Shown here: positions 12,811-19,875 of the stretch, piece by piece
How the letters are laid out: the number at the start of each line of letters is the position of its first letter
Position numbering within the stretch: position 1 is the first letter of the stretch
Source: Candidatus Methanolliviera sp. GoM_asphalt
GTDB taxonomy: Archaea; Halobacteriota; Methanoliparia; Methanoliparales; Methanoliparaceae
NCBI GenBank assembly: GCA_902158745.1
Contig: CABGHH010000001.1
Coordinates: 1-31,926, forward strand
Reading direction: 5' to 3'
Length of the DNA stretch: 31,926 nt
Notes under the pieces: model-generated
What the model saw: only the letters and a program-made list of their open reading frames with translations
What the model was told of the DNA's origin: nothing
Database searches by the model: none
Translations under genes and position numbers: made by a program

Positions 12811-13215
12811 ATGGTCAAGAAAGATAGAAAAGTTCCAAAGAGGAAAGAATTTACATTTAGGGGTTATAAACAGGATGAATTACAGAAGATGAGCTTAGAG
12901 ACACTATCAGAGATTTTACCTTCTAGACAGAGAAGGAAGATAAAAAGAGGATTTAAAGAAGAGGAAGAGATATTTCTTAAAAAAATTAAGGGGAAAGAAA
13001 CCGTTAAGACACATTTAAGAAATATGATTGTGCTTCCATCGATGATCGGTAAGAGGGTGGGAATACATAATGGTAAGGGCTTCACCTTCGTCGAGATTCA
13101 GCCTGAGATGATCGGGCACTATCTGGGCGAGTTCGCATTGACAAGAAAAGAGGTGAAGCATGGAAGTGCCGGGCTTGGAGCAACGAAATCGAGCAAATTT
13201 ATACCGTTGAGATGA
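12811..13215 (+). CDS. rps19: 30S ribosomal protein uS19
   Basis: EFTFRGY, KTHLRNM, MIGHYLGEFALTRK.V.HG. Confidence 0.97.
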   Translation: MVKKDRKVPKRKEFTFRGYKQDELQKMSLETLSEILPSRQRRKIKRGFKEEEEIFLKKIKGKETVKTHLRNMIVLPSMIGKRVGIHNGKGFTFVEIQPEMIGHYLGEFALTRKEVKHGSAGLGATKSSKFIPLR

Positions 13216-13224
13216 GGGTAAAAG

Positions 13225-13686
13225 ATGCCAAGCAGACACAAATACTCTATCAATGCAGATCCGGTGCATGGCACGGCTTCTTACGGAAGGGAACTTCCGA
13301 TCTCCCAGAAACATTCTATGGAGATCTGCAGGGAGATTAAGGGAATGAATGTTGACACGGCAAAAAGCTATCTAAAAGATGTTATATCGCTTAAAAATCC
13401 TGTCCCTTTCAAAAAACACAACAAAAAGGTAGCGCATAGAAAGATGGAGGGGTGGGACGCCGGAAAATTTCCAGAGAAAGCTGCCTCTGGAATATTGAAA
13501 TTACTGGAGAACGCAGAAAAGAATGCAGAATATAAAGGGCTAAATTCCGATGAAATAGTGATAAAGCACATAACGGCAAGCAAGGGGCGGCAGATGAAGG
13601 GCTTTTATCCAAGGGCGATGGGTAGAACAACTCCAAAAAGGAAGATCACCACAAATATCGAGATGATATTGGAAGAGGTGCAGTGA
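13225..13686 (+). CDS. rpl22: 50S ribosomal protein uL22
   Basis: IS.KHSMEICREIKGM, VPFKKHN, NAE.NAEYKGL, PRAMGR. Confidence 0.97.
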   Translation: MPSRHKYSINADPVHGTASYGRELPISQKHSMEICREIKGMNVDTAKSYLKDVISLKNPVPFKKHNKKVAHRKMEGWDAGKFPEKAASGILKLLENAEKNAEYKGLNSDEIVIKHITASKGRQMKGFYPRAMGRTTPKRKITTNIEMILEEVQ

Positions 13687-13713
13687 TGTGGGCAAATCGG
13701 AGATTTTTGAATG
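13686..13713 (+). repeat. ATG-flanked short element, copy 4 (22-nt internal-deletion derivative) between rpl22 and rps3
   Basis: ATG-TGGGCAAATCGGAGATTTTTGA-ATG; identical to the copy at 18475-18524 minus 22 nt between two AAATCG hexamers. Confidence 0.85.
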
Positions 13714-14445
13714 CCAGTTGAGAAGAAATTCATCATGGAAGGACTCGAAAAATACAGGTTGAATGAGTTCCTCGCGAAATCTCTCATGACGGCGGGTTAT
13801 GGTGGAGCAGAATTGAACAGGACACCTCTCGGCATGCAGATAATTGTCTATGTTGAAAAACCGGGATTGGTGATAGGGAGAGGTGGCGAAAAGATAAGAA
13901 AAACCACCGAAGAGATCCGAAAGAAGTTTAATCTAGATAACCCACAGATAGAAGTGGTAGAATCTGAGAATGCACGATTAAATCCCCTAATAATGGCAAA
14001 TAGACTTGCGAATTTGTTGGAAAGAGGGTGGTATTTTAGAAGAGCAGGCCACAACATATTGAGAGAGATAATGAATGCGGGAGCGCTTGGATGCGAGATC
14101 GTGCTTGCGGGGAAGCTTACGGGGCCAAGAGCGAGGACGGAAAAATTTGTTAAAGGGTACATGATACATGCTGGAGAACCTGTAAATGATATCGTTAAAA
14201 GGGGATACACCATAGCCAAGAAGAAGCTCGGTGTGATAGGAGTTAATGTACGGATCATTCTTCCTTCCGCACGGTTGCCCGACAAATTCGAAGTTAAGGA
14301 GAAAGAAGAAGTGACGGTAGCAGTTAAGGATAAAGAAGAAGCTACGGTAGCAGTTAAGGATAAAGAAGAAGCTACGGTAGCAGTTAAGGATAAAGAAGAA
14401 GCTACGGTAGCAGTTAAGGATAAAGAAGAAGCGACAGAGGGATGA
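13711..14445 (+). CDS. rps3: 30S ribosomal protein uS3 with repeat-expanded C-terminal tail
   Basis: AGYGG..L.RTPLG, PGLVIGRGG, GCEIVLAGKLTG.RARTEKF, G.IGV.V.I. Confidence 0.97.
   Translation: MPVEKKFIMEGLEKYRLNEFLAKSLMTAGYGGAELNRTPLGMQIIVYVEKPGLVIGRGGEKIRKTTEEIRKKFNLDNPQIEVVESENARLNPLIMANRLANLLERGWYFRRAGHNILREIMNAGALGCEIVLAGKLTGPRARTEKFVKGYMIHAGEPVNDIVKRGYTIAKKKLGVIGVNVRIILPSARLPDKFEVKEKEEVTVAVKDKEEATVAVKDKEEATVAVKDKEEATVAVKDKEEATEG
14293..14435 (+). repeat. 30-bp tandem repeat x about 5 (GTTAAGGATAAAGAAGAAGCTACGGTAGCA) encoding VKDKEEATVA
   Basis: Units start at 14293, 14323, 14353, 14383 and 14413; the middle three are identical and the outer two are degenerate; no spacers. Confidence 0.97.
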
Positions 14446-14654
14446 AATTGGCACTGATGAGACCGAGTGAAATAAGAGAGATGAACGAATCTGAGAGAGA
14501 AAGAGCGTTAAAGAGGTTTCAATACGATCTTATAAAAGAGAGGGGCACTATTGCCGCCGGAGGGTCGCTAAAAAATCCTAGTAGGGTGCGGGCGATAAGA
14601 AAAGCCATAGCAAGAATAAAAACAATAAATAATGAGATAAGGAGAAATAGGTAA
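14442..14654 (+). CDS. rpl29: 50S ribosomal protein uL29
   Basis: RPSEIREM, NPSRVRAIRKAIARIKT. Confidence 0.96.
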   Translation: MKLALMRPSEIREMNESERERALKRFQYDLIKERGTIAAGGSLKNPSRVRAIRKAIARIKTINNEIRRNR

Positions 14655-14659
14655 AAGAG

Positions 14660-15001
14660 ATGAGGTTAAAACCGACGAACATATTGTATCACGAATTGAT
14701 AGGGCTTGATGTAACGGTTGAAGATAGCAAGAACCCGTATCAGGTTGGCATAAAGGGAAAAGTCACCGATGAGACGAAGAAGATGCTTATAATCTCTGAG
14801 AGGTCAAAAGAGAAGAAGATTGCAAAGAAAGATGCAAAATTCATATTTAAAAATCCTTTGAACGATGATTGCGAATCTTCGATTCGCAAACTTGAAAATG
14901 GAACATTTTCAAATGATACTTGGAAGAATGTCCTGATAGATGGAAGGCTGTTGGTCGGTAGGCCCGAGGAGAGAATTAAAAAGATGGGGGATGCATCATG
15001 A
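14660..15001 (+). CDS. rnp1: RNase P protein component Rpp29/Pop4, with a 16-aa insertion
   Basis: HELIGL.V.V, G+[22 protein letters not shown]; canonical position between rpl29 and rps17. Confidence 0.95.
14865..14916 (+). repeat. Double-hairpin element, copy 1, in frame inside rnp1
   Basis: ATGA-TTGCGAATC[TTC]GATTCGCAA-AC-TTGAAAATG[GAA]CATTTTCAA-ATGA: two perfect 9-bp stems with 3-nt loops, flanked by ATGA. Confidence 0.88.
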
Positions 15002-15312
15002 GAGATATTGGTCTAAACGTTAAACCGCCAGAAAGCAAATGCAGCGATATAAATTGTCCCTTTCATGGAAATCTCTCCGTTAGAGGACAGGTCTTTGTCG
15101 GCAAGGTGGTAAGCTCAGAGGGTAAAACCGTCGTTGTTAGGAGGGAGATGAACCGATTTGTGAAGAAGTACGAGAGATATGAGCGAAGAAGCTCTAATAT
15201 TCATGCTCATAATCCCCCTTGTATCAAAATTAGGGTGGGAGACCTGGTAAAAGTAGCGGAATGCAGGCCGATCAGCAAGACCAAATCCTTTGTCGTCGTT
15301 GAGAGGCTATAA
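14998..15312 (+). CDS. rps17: 30S ribosomal protein uS17
   Basis: RDIGL.VKPP...[35 protein letters not shown]. Confidence 0.97.
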
Positions 15313-15362
15313 TGATTGCAAATGTTCATTTGCAAACTTGAAAATCGGAGATTTTCAAATGA
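15312..15362 (+). repeat. Double-hairpin element, copy 2, between rps17 and rpl14
   Basis: ATGA-TTGCAAATG[TT]CATTTGCAA-AC-TTGAAAATC[GGA]GATTTTCAA-ATGA; same architecture as copy 1 with compensatory stem changes. Confidence 0.88.
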
Positions 15363-15757
15363 AAGCGATCAAATCTAATATAACAAAAGCGTTACAGACG
15401 CGTTCCAGACTTCTCTGTGCGGATAACAGCGGGGCAAAGATCCTGGAGATAATCAGTGTTAAAGGGTATAGGGGCGTTAAGAGAAGGTATCCGAAAGCCG
15501 GCATAGGGGATATAGTGGTGGTAACCGTAAAGAAGGGGGCACCTGAGATGAAAAAACAGATCTTAAATGCGGTGATAATCAGGCAAAAAAAAGAATTCAG
15601 AAGGTCAGACGGATCCAGGATTCAATTTGAAGATAATGCGGCCGTAATCATGGATGAAAGTGGTGGGTTGAAGGCTTCGGAGATAAAAGGCCCCGCCGCG
15701 AGAGAGGCGGTAGAGAGATTTTCTAAGATCGCTTCCCTGGCTTCTATGATCGTTTGA
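15359..15757 (+). CDS. rpl14: 50S ribosomal protein uL14
   Basis: CADNSGAK, A.+[17 protein letters not shown]+GP.AREA; true start 15359 (the ORF-track start at 15290 reads through rps17 and the inserted element). Confidence 0.96.
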
Positions 15758-15769
15758 GGGAGTAATAAG

Positions 15770-16159
15770 ATGATCAAAGATCGAAGATCTGCGACTGTGC
15801 ACAAGACGAGATCAAAACAACCGAGAAAACAGAGAAGAGCTCTCTATAACGCACCTCTTCATCTTAGACAGAAGCTCGTTAGAGCCCCATTGAGCACGGA
15901 TCTAAGGGGGGAGTATGGGAAGAGAAGCGTCCAGGTTAGAAAGGGAGATAGCGTTTTGATAATGATGGGAGATGACAGAGGAAAGGAAGGTAAGGTTCAA
16001 AGGGTGGATCTGAGAAGCGTAAAGATATGGGTGGAAGGGCTGGTCATTGCGAAGGCCGATGGAACGGAAGTTCCAAGAGCCATTCACCCGTCGAACGTTA
16101 CGGTAACCAAATTAAACTTGGATGACGAGGAGAGAATAAAGATCTTGGAGAGGAAGTAA
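15770..16159 (+). CDS. rpl24: 50S ribosomal protein uL24 (about 12-aa N-terminal extension)
   Basis: SKQPRKQRRALYNAPLH, VRKGD.V.+M.GD, IHPSNV.+TKL. Confidence 0.96.
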   Translation: MIKDRRSATVHKTRSKQPRKQRRALYNAPLHLRQKLVRAPLSTDLRGEYGKRSVQVRKGDSVLIMMGDDRGKEGKVQRVDLRSVKIWVEGLVIAKADGTEVPRAIHPSNVTVTKLNLDDEERIKILERK

Positions 16160-16858
16160 ATGAGTGGATACCAGAAGAGGATATCGTCCCCAAGGGCGTG
16201 GCCCATCGGGAGAAAAGAGCATAAGTGGATCGTTAAGCCGATACCAGGCACTCATTCCATAGAGCGGAGCATACCCTTGCTCGTGCTTCTCAGAGATGTA
16301 CTCGGAGTTGTGGATAACGGCCATGAGGCAAAATATGCTCTTAGAAAGGGCCGCGTCTTGGTGGATGGCATAGTCAGGAAGGCTTACCGGTTTCCGGTTG
16401 GTCTATTCGATCTGATAAGTATTCTCCCCGATGAGAAACACTACAGGGTTTTATTGAGTCATCGTGGAAAGATAACGGTTAGAGAGACGGATGAGCCAAA
16501 GGTAAAGTTATGTAAGATAGAGAAGAAGCAGGTGGTTAGAGGTGGAAAGATACAGATGGGGTTGCACGATGGGACAAACATCCTTACAAATAATGATTAC
16601 AGGAGAAAGGACTCGATCATGATATCGGTTCCAGAGAGGGAGATCTTGAAACATATAAAATACGAAGCCGGCAGAGTTGCTCTGGTGACAGGCGGAAAGC
16701 ATACAGGGGAGGTAGGGAAGATAAAGAAGATAGAGGTTAGAGAGGGTTCAAATCCCAACATAGTGACGATCGAGATGGATGATAAAATTTTTGAGACGAT
16801 CGAGGATTATGCCTTCATTGTAGGCGAAGAAAAGCCTCTTCTAAATTTGGAGATCTAA
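16160..16858 (+). CDS. rps4e: 30S ribosomal protein eS4
   Basis: QKRISSP..WPI.RKE, PG.HS, VLVDG.VRK...FPVGLFD, TGGKH.G.VG.I. Confidence 0.96.
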   Translation: MSGYQKRISSPRAWPIGRKEHKWIVKPIPGTHSIERSIPLLVLLRDVLGVVDNGHEAKYALRKGRVLVDGIVRKAYRFPVGLFDLISILPDEKHYRVLLSHRGKITVRETDEPKVKLCKIEKKQVVRGGKIQMGLHDGTNILTNNDYRRKDSIMISVPEREILKHIKYEAGRVALVTGGKHTGEVGKIKKIEVREGSNPNIVTIEMDDKIFETIEDYAFIVGEEKPLLNLEI

Positions 16859-16859
16859 T

Positions 16860-17372
16860 ATGAGTGAGAACCCCATGAGAAAACCACGGATAGAGAAAGT
16901 TTTAGTGCATATGGGGGTAGGGGAGAGTGGCAAACAGCTTATAAATGCGGAGAAAGTCCTTGCGACGATCACCGGGCAAAAAACCACGAGAACCTTCGCC
17001 AAGAAGACAAGACCGGCATTTGGAATCAAGAAAGGAGAGCCAATAGGTTGTAAGGTTACCCTCAGAAAAAAGATGGCAAAGAACTTTCTAAAAGACGCCT
17101 TGAATGTGCTAAATAATATCATCGATGAAGATTGTTTTGACGAGACAGGAAATTTTTCTTTCGGGATGGAAGAGCATTTGGCATTTCCAAATATGAAATA
17201 TGATCCAGAGACAGGAATATTTGGTATGGACGTCACGGTGGTACTCGAGAGACCAGGAAAGAGGATCGAAAAGAGGAAGATAAAGCGTGGGAAAGTCCCT
17301 AAGGTGCATAAAATTAATAAAGAAGAGGCGATAGAATTTACCAAGGAACACTTGGGAGTGAAGGTGGAGTGA
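16860..17372 (+). CDS. rpl5: 50S ribosomal protein uL5
   Basis: NPMRKPRIEKV.VHMGVGESG, PIGCKVTLR, GNFSFG, GIFGMDV.VVLERPG. Confidence 0.97.
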   Translation: MSENPMRKPRIEKVLVHMGVGESGKQLINAEKVLATITGQKTTRTFAKKTRPAFGIKKGEPIGCKVTLRKKMAKNFLKDALNVLNNIIDEDCFDETGNFSFGMEEHLAFPNMKYDPETGIFGMDVTVVLERPGKRIEKRKIKRGKVPKVHKINKEEAIEFTKEHLGVKVE

Positions 17373-17549
17373 ATGGGAAAAAAACAAATCCCAAAGCGAT
17401 CACGTTCAAAGAAGACGTTTGGCCGAGGGGCAAATGAGTGTAGAAGATGCGGAAGGAAACAGGGACTCATTCGGAGATACGACATCTATCTCTGTAGACA
17501 GTGTTTTAGAGAGGTTGCCAGCGAGATGGGGTTTAAAAAATATAGGTGA
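17373..17549 (+). CDS. rps14: 30S ribosomal protein uS14 (zinc-binding type, 58 aa)
   Basis: Below the ORF-track cutoff; manual translation [58 protein letters not shown] with CxxC...CxxC. Confidence 0.96.
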
Positions 17550-17554
17550 TTATT

Positions 17555-17944
17555 ATGTTACATGATCCACTTTCAGATGCCCTATCATCTATAAAAAATG
17601 CTGAGATGGGTGGAAAATTGGAAGGTGTTATAAAACCCTCTTCGAAGATTATAGGAAACGTTCTTAAGGTATTCCATGAGCGAGGTTTCATAGAGGAGTT
17701 CGAGTTCATCGAAGACGGGCATGGAGGTAAATTTGGGGTGAAGCTCCTTGGGAAGATAAATGATTGTGGGGTAATTAAACCGAGACACTCCGTCAAGAGG
17801 GGAGAATTTGAGAAGTGGGAGAAGAGATATCTGCCGGCAAAGAACGTTGGCAGTCTGATACTCTCGACCTCGAGAGGCATAATCTCTCACCAAGATGCCG
17901 AAGAAGAGAAGATCGGTGGGGTGCTTTTAGCATTCATATATTAG
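17555..17944 (+). CDS. rps8: 30S ribosomal protein uS8
   Basis: MLHDPLSDALS.IKNAE, EFIEDG.GG.F, GKINDCGVIKPR, EKRYLPA; ends AFIY-TAG. Confidence 0.96.
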   Translation: MLHDPLSDALSSIKNAEMGGKLEGVIKPSSKIIGNVLKVFHERGFIEEFEFIEDGHGGKFGVKLLGKINDCGVIKPRHSVKRGEFEKWEKRYLPAKNVGSLILSTSRGIISHQDAEEEKIGGVLLAFIY

Positions 17945-17953
17945 GTGCCTTTT

Positions 17954-18472
17954 ATGAGAAGAGAGCTAAATATACCAGGGGATGTTGAAATTACCATCGA
18001 TAAGGATGTAATAGAGGTGAAGGGGCCAAAAGGGGCGCTAAAAGAGAGATTATTCTATATTGGCGTTGAGATATTTAAAGAGGATACTAAAGTAATTGTA
18101 AGTACTCAAAAAAGCAAAAAAGAACACAGATCCATCATAGGCACGTTTGCATCCCACATAAACAACATGATGGTCGGAATTACGAGAGGATTCGAGTACA
18201 AACTTAAGGTGGTTTATGCACACTTTCCCATCCAACTTGAACTCAAAGATGATAAACTCGTCATAAATAATTTTTTGGGGGAGAAGAAATCGAGAGTGGC
18301 CAAGATCGTTGGGGATGCAGAGGTGAAGATAGATAAGGATATTATAACGGTTACTGGGGCGGCTAAGGAAGAGGTTGGACAGACCGCCGCTAATATGGAA
18401 CAAAGCACCAAGATCAGAAGAAGGGATCCAAGGGTCTTTCAAGATGGTATCTACCTCATAAGTAGGGGATAG
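17954..18472 (+). CDS. rpl6: 50S ribosomal protein uL6
   Basis: V.GPKG.L, GFEYKLKVVYAHFP, NFLGEK, DPRVFQDGIY; ATG 17954 follows an AGGTG RBS. Confidence 0.96.
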   Translation: MRRELNIPGDVEITIDKDVIEVKGPKGALKERLFYIGVEIFKEDTKVIVSTQKSKKEHRSIIGTFASHINNMMVGITRGFEYKLKVVYAHFPIQLELKDDKLVINNFLGEKKSRVAKIVGDAEVKIDKDIITVTGAAKEEVGQTAANMEQSTKIRRRDPRVFQDGIYLISRG

Positions 18473-18474
18473 TG

Positions 18475-18524
18475 ATGTGGGCAAATCGAAGATTTGCACA
18501 TCAAAAATCGGAGATTTTTGAATG
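18475..18524 (+). repeat. Double-hairpin element, copy 3, between rpl6 and rpl32e
   Basis: ATG-TGGGCAAATC[GAA]GATTTGCACA-TCAAAAATC[GGA]GATTTTTGA-ATG; 44 nt between the two ATGs. Confidence 0.88.
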
Positions 18525-18908
18525 GGAGAAGAGCAGAGATTATTGAGAGTTCGTAGCACACAAAAGCATAAAAAACCAAGCTTCTCCAGATATGGCTCTA
18601 AATATAAAAAAAGAGTTAAAGAAGCGTGGAGAAGACCAAGAGGGAGACAAAATAAACAGAGGCGTAGAAAAGTATCAAAACCGGCGGTTGTTAAGGTAGG
18701 ATATGGTTCTCCTGCACTTGTTAAAGGGTTACACCCTTCTGGGCTTGAAGACACGCTCGTAAGAAACATTAAAGAGCTGAAAAAAGTCGATCCCGAAAAA
18801 CAGTTGGTTAGAATCGCGAGAACCGTCGGCAGAAAAAAGAGATTGGAGATAGAAGAGAGAGCAGAAGAGATTGGGATAAAGATCATTAATATGGTGAAGG
18901 AACTATGA
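18522..18908 (+). CDS. rpl32e: 50S ribosomal protein eL32
   Basis: KP.F.R, WRRPRG..NKQRR, V.VGYGSP...+GLHPSG. Confidence 0.96.
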   Translation: MGEEQRLLRVRSTQKHKKPSFSRYGSKYKKRVKEAWRRPRGRQNKQRRRKVSKPAVVKVGYGSPALVKGLHPSGLEDTLVRNIKELKKVDPEKQLVRIARTVGRKKRLEIEERAEEIGIKIINMVKEL

Positions 18909-19354
18909 CAGATCTTTCCATGCAGAAAAATCTTGCGGCAAAAGTGATGAAGATTGGAAAAAATAGGGTTAGACTCGACCCGGAAAAGGGCGAGGATATC
19001 GCCGTTGCAATAACGAGAGATGATATAAGAGGGCTGATAGAGGATGGTGCTATCAAAAAAATTCAAAAGAAAGGGGTGAGTAGAGGAAGAGCAAGAGAAA
19101 GAGATGCAAAGAGGGCGTATGGCCACAGAAAAGGTCATGGAAAGAGAAAAGGCGCCAAAAATGCTCGTTCTTCTAAGAAAGGAAGATGGATGAAGACCGT
19201 GAGGGCACAGAGAAGGTATTTGAGAGGGCTAAGAGACGGAGAGGAGATAGACAGATCAGATTACAGGATGCTTTACAACAAATCTAAGGGCGGAGAATTT
19301 AGGAGTATCAGGCTCTTGGATACCTATATTAAGATGAATAATATTAGAAGGTGA
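18905..19354 (+). CDS. rpl19e: 50S ribosomal protein eL19
   Basis: L..QK.LAA.VMK.GKNRV.LDP, AITRDDIR.LI, G.GKRKG.K.AR, KGGEF. Confidence 0.97.
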   Translation: MTDLSMQKNLAAKVMKIGKNRVRLDPEKGEDIAVAITRDDIRGLIEDGAIKKIQKKGVSRGRARERDAKRAYGHRKGHGKRKGAKNARSSKKGRWMKTVRAQRRYLRGLRDGEEIDRSDYRMLYNKSKGGEFRSIRLLDTYIKMNNIRR

Positions 19355-19359
19355 CTTAT

Positions 19360-19875
19360 ATGGCAAAAGGCCCCAGATATAGGGTTCCCTTTAGGAGGAG
19401 AAGGGAAAATAAGACCAACTATCCAAAAAGATTGAAGTTATTGTCGTCAAAAAGACCGCGGATTGTTGTGAGAAAAACGAATAAAAATATGATCATCCAG
19501 CTCGTTGGATTGGGCAATAAAGGAGATATCACCTCGATCTCGGCCATTACGGGAGAGCTAATAAAGTATGGATATGATCTTCCCACAGGTAATATTCCCG
19601 CTGCTTACCTAACCGGGCTCCTCTTTGGTTTAAAAGCAAAAGCGAGATTGGAAGGAATGGATGGGGCTATATTAGACACCGGTTTAAATACATCGGTTAA
19701 AGGATCGAGGATATATGCCTCACTAAAAGGCATGCTTGATGCAGGAATGAGCATTCCGCATGATCCAAAAATTTTGCCTGACGAAAGAACAGTTGAAGGA
19801 GAACGGATGGGGGTTCAAGAGAAGATTGGAAAAGTGAAGGAGATCGTTATATCGTCTTTTGGGGAATATCAATGA
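19360..19875 (+). CDS. rpl18: 50S ribosomal protein uL18
   Basis: [43 protein letters not shown]. Confidence 0.96.

Follow-up and report, generated by a model that had tools for sequence, protein, structure and literature searches.

The ribosomal protein operon of Candidatus Methanolliviera sp. GoM_asphalt (contig CABGHH010000001.1; the window is the whole 31,926-nt stretch analyzed) contains four short hairpin inserts, which raises the question of what they are and how they came to be there. The three junctions affected are tight in more than 70 related archaea, with gaps of -1 between L22 and S3, -4 between S17 and L14 and 5-9 between L6 and L32e. Hairpin repeats of the REP type are a textbook feature of bacteria. 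To our knowledge they are essentially undescribed in archaea, where we know of no RAYT transposases. Our analysis indicates that the inserts are probably part of a family of very short palindromic repeats in the DNA, and that these are likely selfish, non-autonomous elements spreading in trans.

The four inserts

All four inserts lie where the initial annotation had placed them (Table 1). Its description of two adjacent stems holds for copies 2, 3 and 4, which form two adjacent hairpins in both DNA and RNA folds, with DNA fold z-scores of -6.2, -4.6 and -5.9, respectively, and none of 200 shuffles folding as well. Copy 1 is instead a single 5-bp hairpin that alone is non-significant in folding (z -0.18). 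Stems of mostly 9 bp closed by triloops were too general a description, as hairpin A has only 7 bp in copy 4 and an 8-bp stem with a 4-nt loop in copy 3, the latter because of a 1-nt deletion. The suggested position at translational coupling junctions does not apply to copy 2, which lies in frame within a gene.

Table 1. Position of the inserts and of one empty target site on contig CABGHH010000001.1
Feature	Position	Strand	Description	Components
Copy 1	13686..13713	+	Single degenerate hairpin, rpl22/rps3 junction	Leftover ATG 13686-13688, overlapping rpl22 stop TGA 13684-13686; AAATC 13694-13698, loop GGA 13699-13701, GATTT 13702-13706; 3' of the hairpin, rps3 start ATG 13711-13713
Copy 2	14865..14916	+	48-nt-type doublet in frame inside the Rpp29 gene (ORF 14660-15001)	Hairpin A 14869-14889; linker AC; hairpin B 14892-14912; ATGAT direct repeats at both flanks
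Copy 3	15312..15361	+	Doublet at rps17/rpl14 junction	Leftover ATG 15312-15314, overlapping rps17 stop TAA; hairpin A 15316-15335; linker AC; hairpin B 15338-15358 (loop GGA); rpl14 start ATG 15359-15361
Copy 4	18475..18524	+	Doublet at rpl6/rpl32e junction	Leftover ATG 18475-18477; hairpin A core 18481-18497; hairpin B 18501-18521 (loop GGA); rpl32e start ATG 18522-18524
Empty target site	19655..19656	+	Inside the uL18 gene (ORF 19351-19875)	

Relatives show that such inserts come and go. Copy 3 is missing in both sister genomes, which have TAATGA at this site, and an empty allele (15311-15357 skipped, 47 nt) was found in contigs from runs X1, X2 and X4. Copy 4 is present in both sister genomes, and an empty allele (18475-18521 skipped) occurs in contigs from X8 and X1; in the sister genome locus L001, an extra 47-nt doublet is nested between its two hairpins. 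These natural empty alleles bear out the proposal that removing an insert restores the stop/start overlap. Copy 1, also found at L001, is a hybrid of the two copy 4 hairpins, as judged by its likeness to the 23-24-nt loop-to-loop deletions that make hybrid hairpins at other loci. Copy 2 is found in both sister genomes with a few substitutions and adds about 17 residues in a loop of Rpp29 (RNase P protein), residues that in a protein alignment are restricted to the three Methanolliviera genomes. Because copy 2 is in frame and free of stop codons, we dropped the possibilities of a translational bypass and of a bulge-helix-bulge intron; a BHB-like fold was also lacking.

A genome-wide family

Perfect hairpins with a 9-bp stem and a 3-nt loop occur 118 times in the genome, compared to 7 with 4-nt loops, and the core AAATS-NNN-SATTT defines 241 hairpins versus 10 for a control motif. 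This agrees with the earlier proposal of a small non-autonomous element repeated genome-wide. Stem positions that were not used in the selection pair in 82, 78, 71 and 50% of copies, against 46, 38, 37 and 36% after shuffling. The repeat unit is a 21-nt triloop hairpin with an 8-9-bp stem, a loop-proximal core AAAT(C/G)-NNN-(G/C)ATTT, a loop made up of purines only or pyrimidines only, and a T5 run in its 3' arm. Head-to-tail units, separated by linkers of 2-5 nt, make up doublets of 48 or 51 nt as well as longer arrays, and the 201 clusters each hold 1-4 hairpins with a loop-to-loop spacing of 23-26 nt. The hairpin feet are flanked by ATG (57/228), GCA, GGA or TCA. Most arrays are intergenic and 23 of 157 (~15%) lie within continuous coding frames; thus, the family is not tied to coupling junctions as first thought.

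The three Methanolliviera genomes, all fragmented MAGs, have 201, 231 and 265 core matches, and two genomes of the sister genus have 46 and 10 (controls 0-2 in all cases). Elsewhere in Halobacteriota, too, the core has expanded in a patchy manner, and this 13-nt sequence is also expanded in unrelated lineages, again patchily within one genus.

Turnover and behavior at the DNA level

Around 40 arrays can be compared per sister genome, and roughly half of them differ in length even though the genomes are 95-97% identical. The length differences (n=55) have a mode of 48 nt (13 cases), with 51, 24 and 27 nt also represented, and 36 of them are divisible by three (p about 1e-6). Whole blocks come and go as discrete units, both between these genomes and in natural populations, as had been predicted. 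They nest beside or inside other hairpins, and arrays are also found in the loop of an IS end hairpin. Recombination between the loops of adjacent hairpins yields single hybrids, e.g., copy 1, and loops flip as exact reverse complements. The loop-to-loop hybrids and the loop flips show that the palindrome acts at the DNA level.

The 41 orthologous hairpins include two exact 3-nt loop flips and no compensatory stem changes, and their stems drift at about the rate of the flanks (2.2% vs 3.6%). The covariation that had been noted is therefore real between copies but absent from orthologs, which points to different perfect-palindrome variants and not to selection on one RNA. Many junctions have microhomologies of 3-21 nt (AATGA, TCAT, ATGCA, one 10-nt and one 21-nt case). 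For inserts that are missing from sister genomes, the genome contains no identical donor at any other locus, and the closest copy agrees at 35-43 of 43-44 nt. Since a mobilizing enzyme was not found, we infer mobility from the presence/absence patterns.

ATG flanks and translation starts

The 48-nt doublet has ATG at both ends. Of 27 copies, 22 are preceded by NTGA and 24 are followed by ATG, and ATG is found in 7 of the 8 empty sites of this type, which supports the proposed preference for ATG(A). With ATG on both sides, this doublet seems to land on ATG(A), i.e., the usual stop/start overlap of archaeal operons. The 51-nt doublets insert cleanly, with no target motif and no target duplication, so the preference holds for the 48-nt subtype only. 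It could partly reflect survivorship instead of targeting. Three findings had been named beforehand as speaking against a mobile element, i.e., copies at the four sites only, relatives without empty sites and flanks without ATG bias, and the genomes show the opposite in each respect.

The 48-nt doublet brings a new ATG, and its loop 2 gives GGAG 8 nt upstream of it; Shine-Dalgarno sequences of this genome normally take just this position (GGAG, 5-8-nt spacer). Among the 27 copies, 23 have a purine and 4 a pyrimidine loop 2, while loop 1 is split 14:13. An ATG directly 3' of the hairpin opens an ORF of at least 80 codons for 27 of 228 hairpins (1.7 expected), and 19 of these 27 start-adjacent hairpins have the GGA loop in sense orientation. 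Judged from the sequence, the loop GGAG is probably a Shine-Dalgarno-like element for the downstream gene. At coupled junctions, the leftover ATG probably opens a mini-ORF or an N-terminal extension which carries ribosomes through the hairpins, and the GGAG supplied by the loop of hairpin B is probably a second route that keeps translation going. For pairing with the anti-Shine-Dalgarno sequence, a loop of only 3 nt would need the top of the stem to open.

Copies inside genes

The uL18 site that is empty here carries a 51-nt doublet in frame in the sister genome NM1b and in run X4, and the Pfam Ribosomal_L5e match of the NM1b ORF spans the insert. All ten tested NM1b insertions lie inside Pfam-confirmed genes which lack them in this genome. 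Hosts with a Pfam match across the insert include uL18, CobN, topoisomerase I, class I tRNA synthetase, fumarase, PmbA/TldD and M24 peptidase, among others. Most reading frames of the blocks are stop-free. Together with block lengths that are mostly multiples of three, this lets copies survive at start codons and in frame in essential genes. Annotation is affected as well, as start codons and protein lengths change and leftover ATGs give rise to mini-ORFs or 16-residue extensions.

Mode of spread and alternative explanations

The initial annotation had linked the inserts to a Y1 HUH transposase, as in REP or PATE elements. A REP/RAYT- or IS200/IS605-type enzyme would cut hairpin-bearing ssDNA by ATG and insert it 3' of ATG(A) without true duplication. 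Such a mechanism would fit elements that are hairpins without long terminal repeats, the clean 51-nt insertions lacking target duplication, the trinucleotide shared by target and element end in the 48-nt type, and insertion next to hairpin feet and into hairpin loops. This genome also has one element, on contig C36, in which an IS200-type tnpA (PF01797) is followed by tnpB, and sister G001 has two tnpA matches. However, we consider a Y1 enzyme unlikely. The tnpA on C36 is the sole PF01797 match here, and the left-end hairpin of this resident IS605 element is GC-rich with a GTGA loop and unrelated to the family; a Y1, RAYT or TnpA gene bordered by the same hairpins was thus not found. Y1 matches do not track hairpin abundance across 41 genomes: NM1b, the richest in hairpins (265), has none at 91% completeness, the sister genus has none, and several Y1-rich genomes lack the hairpins. 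Nor was a Y1 gene found in five further genomes of two genera, three of which are hairpin-rich (G236, G223 and G288, the last a closed single contig). The link was rejected for this genome, its 40 relatives and the five further genomes. The REP tags GTAG/CGTC are missing, and published surveys found only the IS200-type subclass of Y1 transposases in archaea and no RAYTs (PMC6006769). Spread could also proceed without a transposase, if replication stalls at the stable hairpins and microhomology (such as ATG/ATGA or the stem) lets the nascent strand move to another template, copy the block and return. The junction microhomologies, the hybrid hairpins, modular shuffling and exact loop flips, the nesting beside existing hairpins and the lack of a candidate enzyme that tracks the family are all in line with this. 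We nevertheless hold it to be somewhat doubtful, as block sizes are sharply quantized, full-length 51-nt insertions are clean with no target bases lost even at virgin in-gene sites without microhomology, and the patchy expansion of the 13-nt core within one genus and in unrelated lineages suggests a specific recognition factor.

Two further explanations concern what the hairpins are. They might be host-selected regulatory RNA or DNA motifs, e.g., initiation hairpins, regulator sites or T5-run attenuators, and not selfish DNA. The start-side bias (46 arrays vs 22 on the end side), the GGA loop that stays in sense 8 nt before ATG and the conservation of the core across lineages agree with such a role. 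We find it improbable, since presence varies at the same genes between near-identical genomes, both orientations occur, copies lie in frame in unrelated essential genes, the stems drift without compensatory changes, and Rfam 15 covariance models gave no match at E up to 1 in positions 13000-19500 or in the G034 loci. Exaptation of individual copies is possible. A classical MITE moved by a DDE transposase and producing a 3-bp target-site duplication (ATG), for which a partner with TTGCAAATC/TTGAAAATC termini would be expected, is highly improbable. The flanks do resemble an ATG/ATGA duplication, the two hairpins make the element ends inverted repeats of each other, and a multi-copy IS1-like DDE element is present. 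Yet the blocks of 24-51 nt are far below MITE size (~70-300 bp), no fixed duplication is seen (the 51-nt type has none), and no IS with matching ends was found; the terminal repeat of the IS1-like element differs, and that IS carries a doublet as a passenger. A multi-copy repeat at contig ends, considered as the autonomous element, proved to be the end of this IS1-like element carrying a 51-nt-type doublet.

Other searches for a partner gave no candidate. The only GIY-YIG match was a 519-residue UvrC-like ORF, and the genes with arrays on both sides, listed for a REPtron-like arrangement, included no recurrent candidate. In G031 and G034, mini-hairpins sit as passengers inside the loops of IS hairpins. 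The G034 hairpins were considered as IS605 ends, but this is unproven, and the IS copies of that genome are decayed.

Selfish palindromic repeats would likely spread in trans, as single-stranded hairpins extruded in cruciforms or at replication forks. We propose tentatively, as one possibility, that they form an undescribed class of archaeal selfish DNA built from 24-nt hairpin modules, which spread free of Y1 through either a hairpin-recognizing factor across Halobacteriota or template switching, and which are now translation-compatible cassettes. If so, lengths divisible by three, stop-free frames, an own ATG and a Shine-Dalgarno loop would allow them to colonize starts, coupled junctions and essential genes.

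Comparison with known repeats

Bacterial REP, BIME and REPIN sequences are mobilized by RAYT, a Y1 HUH transposase. The family resembles them in having more than 100 short imperfect palindromes per genome (~21 nt, high copy), often clustered in doublets and mosaic arrays, in stems that vary in sequence with pairing kept, in a short tag by the hairpin foot, and in being non-autonomous and lineage-specific. In contrast, its tags are ATG/CAT and GCA(T/C) and not GTAG/CGTC at one palindrome end, its stems are AT-rich, and neither a RAYT nor a REPtron with a single-copy RAYT flanked by the repeats accompanies it. It is also start-side biased with ~15% of arrays in frame inside genes, while most REPs are reported at a 3' location and no RAYTs have been reported from Archaea (PMC6006769; PMC3733652).

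The RPEs of Rickettsia are likewise selfish palindromes in frame in unrelated housekeeping genes that are kept intact, with the peptide in loops, a likeness that is functional and not one of homology. However, RPEs are bacterial and ~100-150 bp long (review PMC10969869), whereas the archaeal blocks are 48-51 nt (16-17 residues) and also sit on start codons with their own ATG and Shine-Dalgarno-like loop. Palindromic repeats with coding potential are described for Methanocaldococcus jannaschii (Suyama, Lathe and Bork 2005, as cited in PMC2229807). By that description, with which alone we compare, these too are an archaeal palindromic family with some copies fused into protein genes, but their lineage is Methanococci.

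The PATEs of haloarchaea, derived from IS200/IS605 elements, are likewise gene-less and hairpin-bearing, and they insert without target duplication, as the 51-nt type does. Reportedly (Dyall-Smith et al. 2011), PATEs are far longer and retain the terminal hairpins of an IS200/IS605 or IS1341-type element resident in the genome; the hairpins of the IS resident here are unrelated to the family. As regards insertion 3' of a fixed tetra- or pentanucleotide, the 48-nt type has ATG(A) at target and end, and the 51-nt type has neither a duplication nor a common target.

As these repeats show, tiny palindromic modules can be highly dynamic within the genome of an archaeon, inside its most conserved operon and in essential genes that stay unbroken. 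They offer a natural test case for the effect of a Shine-Dalgarno-loop hairpin on archaeal translation initiation and coupling, and the mobilizing factor can be searched for by comparing hairpin-rich and hairpin-free species of one genus. The blocks also mark strains naturally within the Methanoliparia populations of oil seeps, and the host, Ca. Methanolliviera, is itself an oil-degrading archaeon.

The ribosomal operon and its four inserts

The archaeal ribosomal protein operon of the window (rpl22, rps3, rpl29, the RNase P protein Rpp29, rps17, rpl14 ... rpl6, rpl32e, uL18) carries four short inserts at the positions claimed for them in the initial annotation, as we confirmed in the sequence (see table). 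They had been described as a family of double-hairpin elements at translational-coupling junctions, with two adjacent stems in the full copies. Two adjacent hairpins with stems of 7-9 bp are predicted, for DNA and RNA alike, in copies 2, 3 and 4, and an equal DNA fold was obtained in 0 of 200 shuffles, but copy 1 is a single 5-bp hairpin and is not significant alone. Likewise, copies 1, 3 and 4 do lie at coupling junctions, but copy 2 is in frame within the Rpp29 open reading frame.

Coordinates of the inserts and related features
Feature	Sequence	Position	Description
Copy 1	window	13686-13713	coupling junction; z -0.18
Copy 2	window	14865-14916	within Rpp29; z -6.2
Copy 3	window	15312-15361/15362	coupling junction; z -4.6
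Copy 4	window	18475-18524	coupling junction; z -5.9
Rpp29 reading frame	window	14660-15001	hosts copy 2
Copy 3 empty allele	window	15311-15357	segment skipped
Copy 4 empty allele	window	18475-18521	segment skipped
Arm with T run, before rps3	window	13702-13710	hairpin B, 3' arm
Arm with T run, before rpl32e	window	18513-18521	hairpin B, 3' arm
uS3 tail repeat	window	14292-14441	30-nt units
IS200/IS605 element	window's genome, contig C36	10453-11579	L081:1453-2573
IS1-like element	locus L153	3751-6107	complete, 2.4 kb
IS1-like terminus	window's genome, contig C33	1-247	also C58, C34, C105, C119, C168
Triloop array	genome G031, contig C1	~979440-979590	L156:1140-1290
Repeated doublets	sister genus G003, contig C3	79600-80400	L185, apparent minus-strand gene

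A genome-wide family of triloop hairpins

Perfect 9-bp stems closed by a 3-nt loop occur 118 times in the genome, compared with 7 for a 4-nt loop. When hairpins were defined by the five loop-proximal pairs only (AAATS-NNN-SATTT), 241 were found versus 10 with a control motif. The outermost four positions of the stem, which played no part in this selection, are paired in 82, 78, 71 and 50% of the copies (46, 38, 37 and 36% when shuffled), and each uses several pair types across copies. In about 93% of cases the loop consists of purines only or pyrimidines only (GAA/TTC, GGA/TCC, AAA/TTT, AGA/TCT). The hairpins are single or arranged in arrays of 2-4 with a loop-to-loop distance of 23-26 nt, and four-hairpin arrays reach up to ~96 nt. 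Two doublets recur: a 48-nt form consisting of ATG, A, a TTGCAAATC-type hairpin, AC and a TTGAAAATC- or TTAAAAATC-type hairpin before the next ATG, and a 51-nt form in which a TCAAAAATC-type hairpin is joined by a GATAC-like linker to a GCAAATC-type hairpin. No Rfam match was found in window positions 13000-19500.

Gain and loss between genomes and populations

An rpl14 protein search retrieved two genomes with L14 98% identical, one a Ca. Methanolliviera MAG recovered from Gulf of Mexico oil and the other Ca. M. hydrocarbonicum NM1b, and their operon DNA shares 95-97% identity with the window; the window's genome (1.75 Mb, 270 contigs, 43% G+C) is a third Methanolliviera member. The proposal that removal of an insert restores a stop/start overlap is borne out by natural empty alleles of copies 3 and 4: the site of copy 3 is empty in both sister genomes and reads TAATGA, and that of copy 4 is empty in metagenome contigs. 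Copy 4 is kept in both sisters, one of which has a further 47-nt doublet nested between its two hairpins, and the uL18 gene of NM1b contains a 51-nt doublet that is missing from the window's uL18. The expected presence/absence polymorphism was seen as several alleles in contigs of independent metagenomes: three runs carry copy 3 in its empty form, copy 4 is empty in one tar-pit run and, as a minor allele, in the sample from which the window probably derives, and one run has the uL18 insert.

Across ~0.7 Mb of NM1b and ~0.4 Mb of the other sister, roughly half of the arrays with both flanks locatable in the other genome differ in length. The 55 length differences, which include a few loci counted twice, show a sharp peak at 48 nt (n=13) and more peaks at 51, 27 and 24 nt, and 36 of the 55 are multiples of three (p ~1e-6). 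Deletions of 23-24 nt between neighbouring loops leave single hybrid hairpins that resemble copy 1.

Target site and compatibility with translation

Empty sites of the 48-nt doublet contain ATG in 7 of 8 cases, and exact gap placement gives shared ends of AATGA, TCAT, AATG or ATGCA. The flanks of 27 well-formed doublets from the three genomes agree with NTGA on the 5' side in 22 and ATG on the 3' side in 24. ATGA is the usual start/stop overlap in archaeal operons; rps17 and rpl14 overlap by exactly ATGA in 64 of 77 relatives, and a one-base overlap is present at the L22/S3 junction in 38 of 71. This overlap accounts for the occurrence of inserts at coupled junctions. For the 51-nt doublets, comparison of inserts with empty sites revealed no common target or duplication.

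An ATG directly 3' of the hairpin opens a reading frame of at least 80 codons for 27 of 228 hairpins (1.7 expected), and in 19 of these 27 a sense GGA loop places GGAG 8 nt 5' of the ATG; among 889 long reading frames of this genome, GGAG is commonest 5-8 nt 5' of ATG. In the 48-nt doublets, purine loops outnumber pyrimidine loops 23 to 4 at the ATG-proximal position, while the distal loop, serving as an internal control, divides 14 to 13. Loop orientation does flip between the sister genomes, so its retention next to the ATG points to selection. At the three window junctions, a short reading frame, out of frame with the downstream gene, begins at the leftover ATG and passes through the hairpins; it ends inside hairpin B, the second of the doublet, in copy 3 and just past the true start in copies 1 and 4. 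Together with the loop GGAG, this reading frame would maintain translation of the downstream gene.

Copies inside genes

The Rpp29 insert lengthens a turn between two strands by ~17 residues, which in an alignment of 14 archaea are present only in the three genomes of Methanolliviera. Of the 55 polymorphic blocks, 22 are flanked on both sides by at least 40 codons of open frame, and all 10 NM1b insertions examined lie within a gene whose Pfam match spans the insert (uL18, CobN, topoisomerase I, class I tRNA synthetase, fumarase, PmbA/TldD, M24 peptidase, an oxidoreductase, a DHOD-B type subunit and DUF7411). When 157 arrays were classified by codon-usage score, 23 fell inside uninterrupted coding frames (random intervals would give 43%), and 46 lay on the start side of genes versus 22 on the end side. 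In the sister genus, three doublets ~300 nt apart occupy one 800-nt stretch, which could represent one gene that has taken up several in-frame insertions.

DNA pairing and the search for a mobilising enzyme

The stem covariation reported in the initial annotation is real between copies, but the stem changes seen in 41 orthologous hairpins of the sister genomes were one-sided in 16 cases and compensatory in none. The covariation thus reflects different perfect-palindrome variants and not the upkeep of one RNA. Stems diverge by 2.2% versus 3.6% for flanks, and 2 of the 41 hairpins carry an exact three-base loop inversion. Such loop flips, like the hybrid hairpins, are expected products of intrastrand DNA pairing.

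Mobilisation by a Y1 (HUH) transposase, as first suggested, is weakened by the finding that Y1 matches do not follow hairpin numbers across 41 genomes: NM1b has 265 hairpins and zero Y1 matches, and some genomes with 3-7 matches are almost hairpin-free. Five further genomes (G236 and four species of its genus), of which three are rich in hairpins and one is closed, likewise yielded no Y1 gene. The one IS200/IS605 element in the genome (a 145-residue tnpA followed by a tnpB cut by the contig end) was rejected as the source, its left-end hairpin being GC-rich and unrelated. In two distant genomes, mini-hairpins are passengers within loops of IS605-type end hairpins. A multi-copy repeat at contig ends was likewise dismissed as an autonomous element; it is the ~245-bp terminus, found at the ends of at least 10 contigs, of an IS1-like DDE element (weak PF03400 match) that carries a 51-nt-type doublet as a passenger. 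No small GIY-YIG gene was found in the genome. No candidate enzyme tracks the hairpins. The blocks are most likely mobilised by a further factor that acts on the single-stranded hairpin. The spread of hairpin blocks by template switching is a serious rival.

In a survey of 301 Halobacteriota genomes, the 13-nt core is strongly expanded in a few scattered lineages (180, 105, 88, 86, 51 and 44 copies) and unevenly distributed among species of one genus (51 and 44 versus 4 and 0). An array of six triloop hairpins like those of the family lies inside the right-end hairpin loop of an IS200/IS605 element, immediately after tnpA, in the distant, GC-richer genome G031. The closed genome G288, from another family, has GCAAATC-AAA-GATTTGC hairpins within larger composite repeats (L195-L203), which also hold other triloop hairpins (e.g. 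GCAAGGC-TTT-GCCTTGC) and a common TCAGCTGAGG motif; two species of its genus have almost no such hairpins.

Relation to known palindromic repeats

REPs and RAYT transposases are bacterial, and in a phylogenomic survey only the IS200-type Y1 subclass was present in Archaea (PMC6006769). REPs have GTAG or CGTC tags and are found mainly downstream of genes, with some copies within genes (PMC3733652). In-frame palindromes are known in Rickettsia (review, PMC10969869), and a palindrome family with coding potential has been described in M. jannaschii (Suyama et al. 2005, cited in PMC2229807). Among palindromic repeats of this kind, the Methanolliviera family is distinguished by its very small, modular unit, by a cassette that is bounded by ATG and has a Shine-Dalgarno-like loop, by how often in-frame copies occur in essential genes, and by the absence of an associated Y1 transposase.

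Additional features of the operon

A five-T run lies in the 3' arm of hairpin B immediately 5' of the start codons of rps3 and rpl32e. Because oligo-T tracts signal termination in archaea, these two copies might additionally attenuate transcription inside the operon. The charged tail of uS3 is encoded by five tandem units, and offset BLAST alignments indicate ~2 extra units in the sister locus L001, so repeat copy number differs between close relatives.
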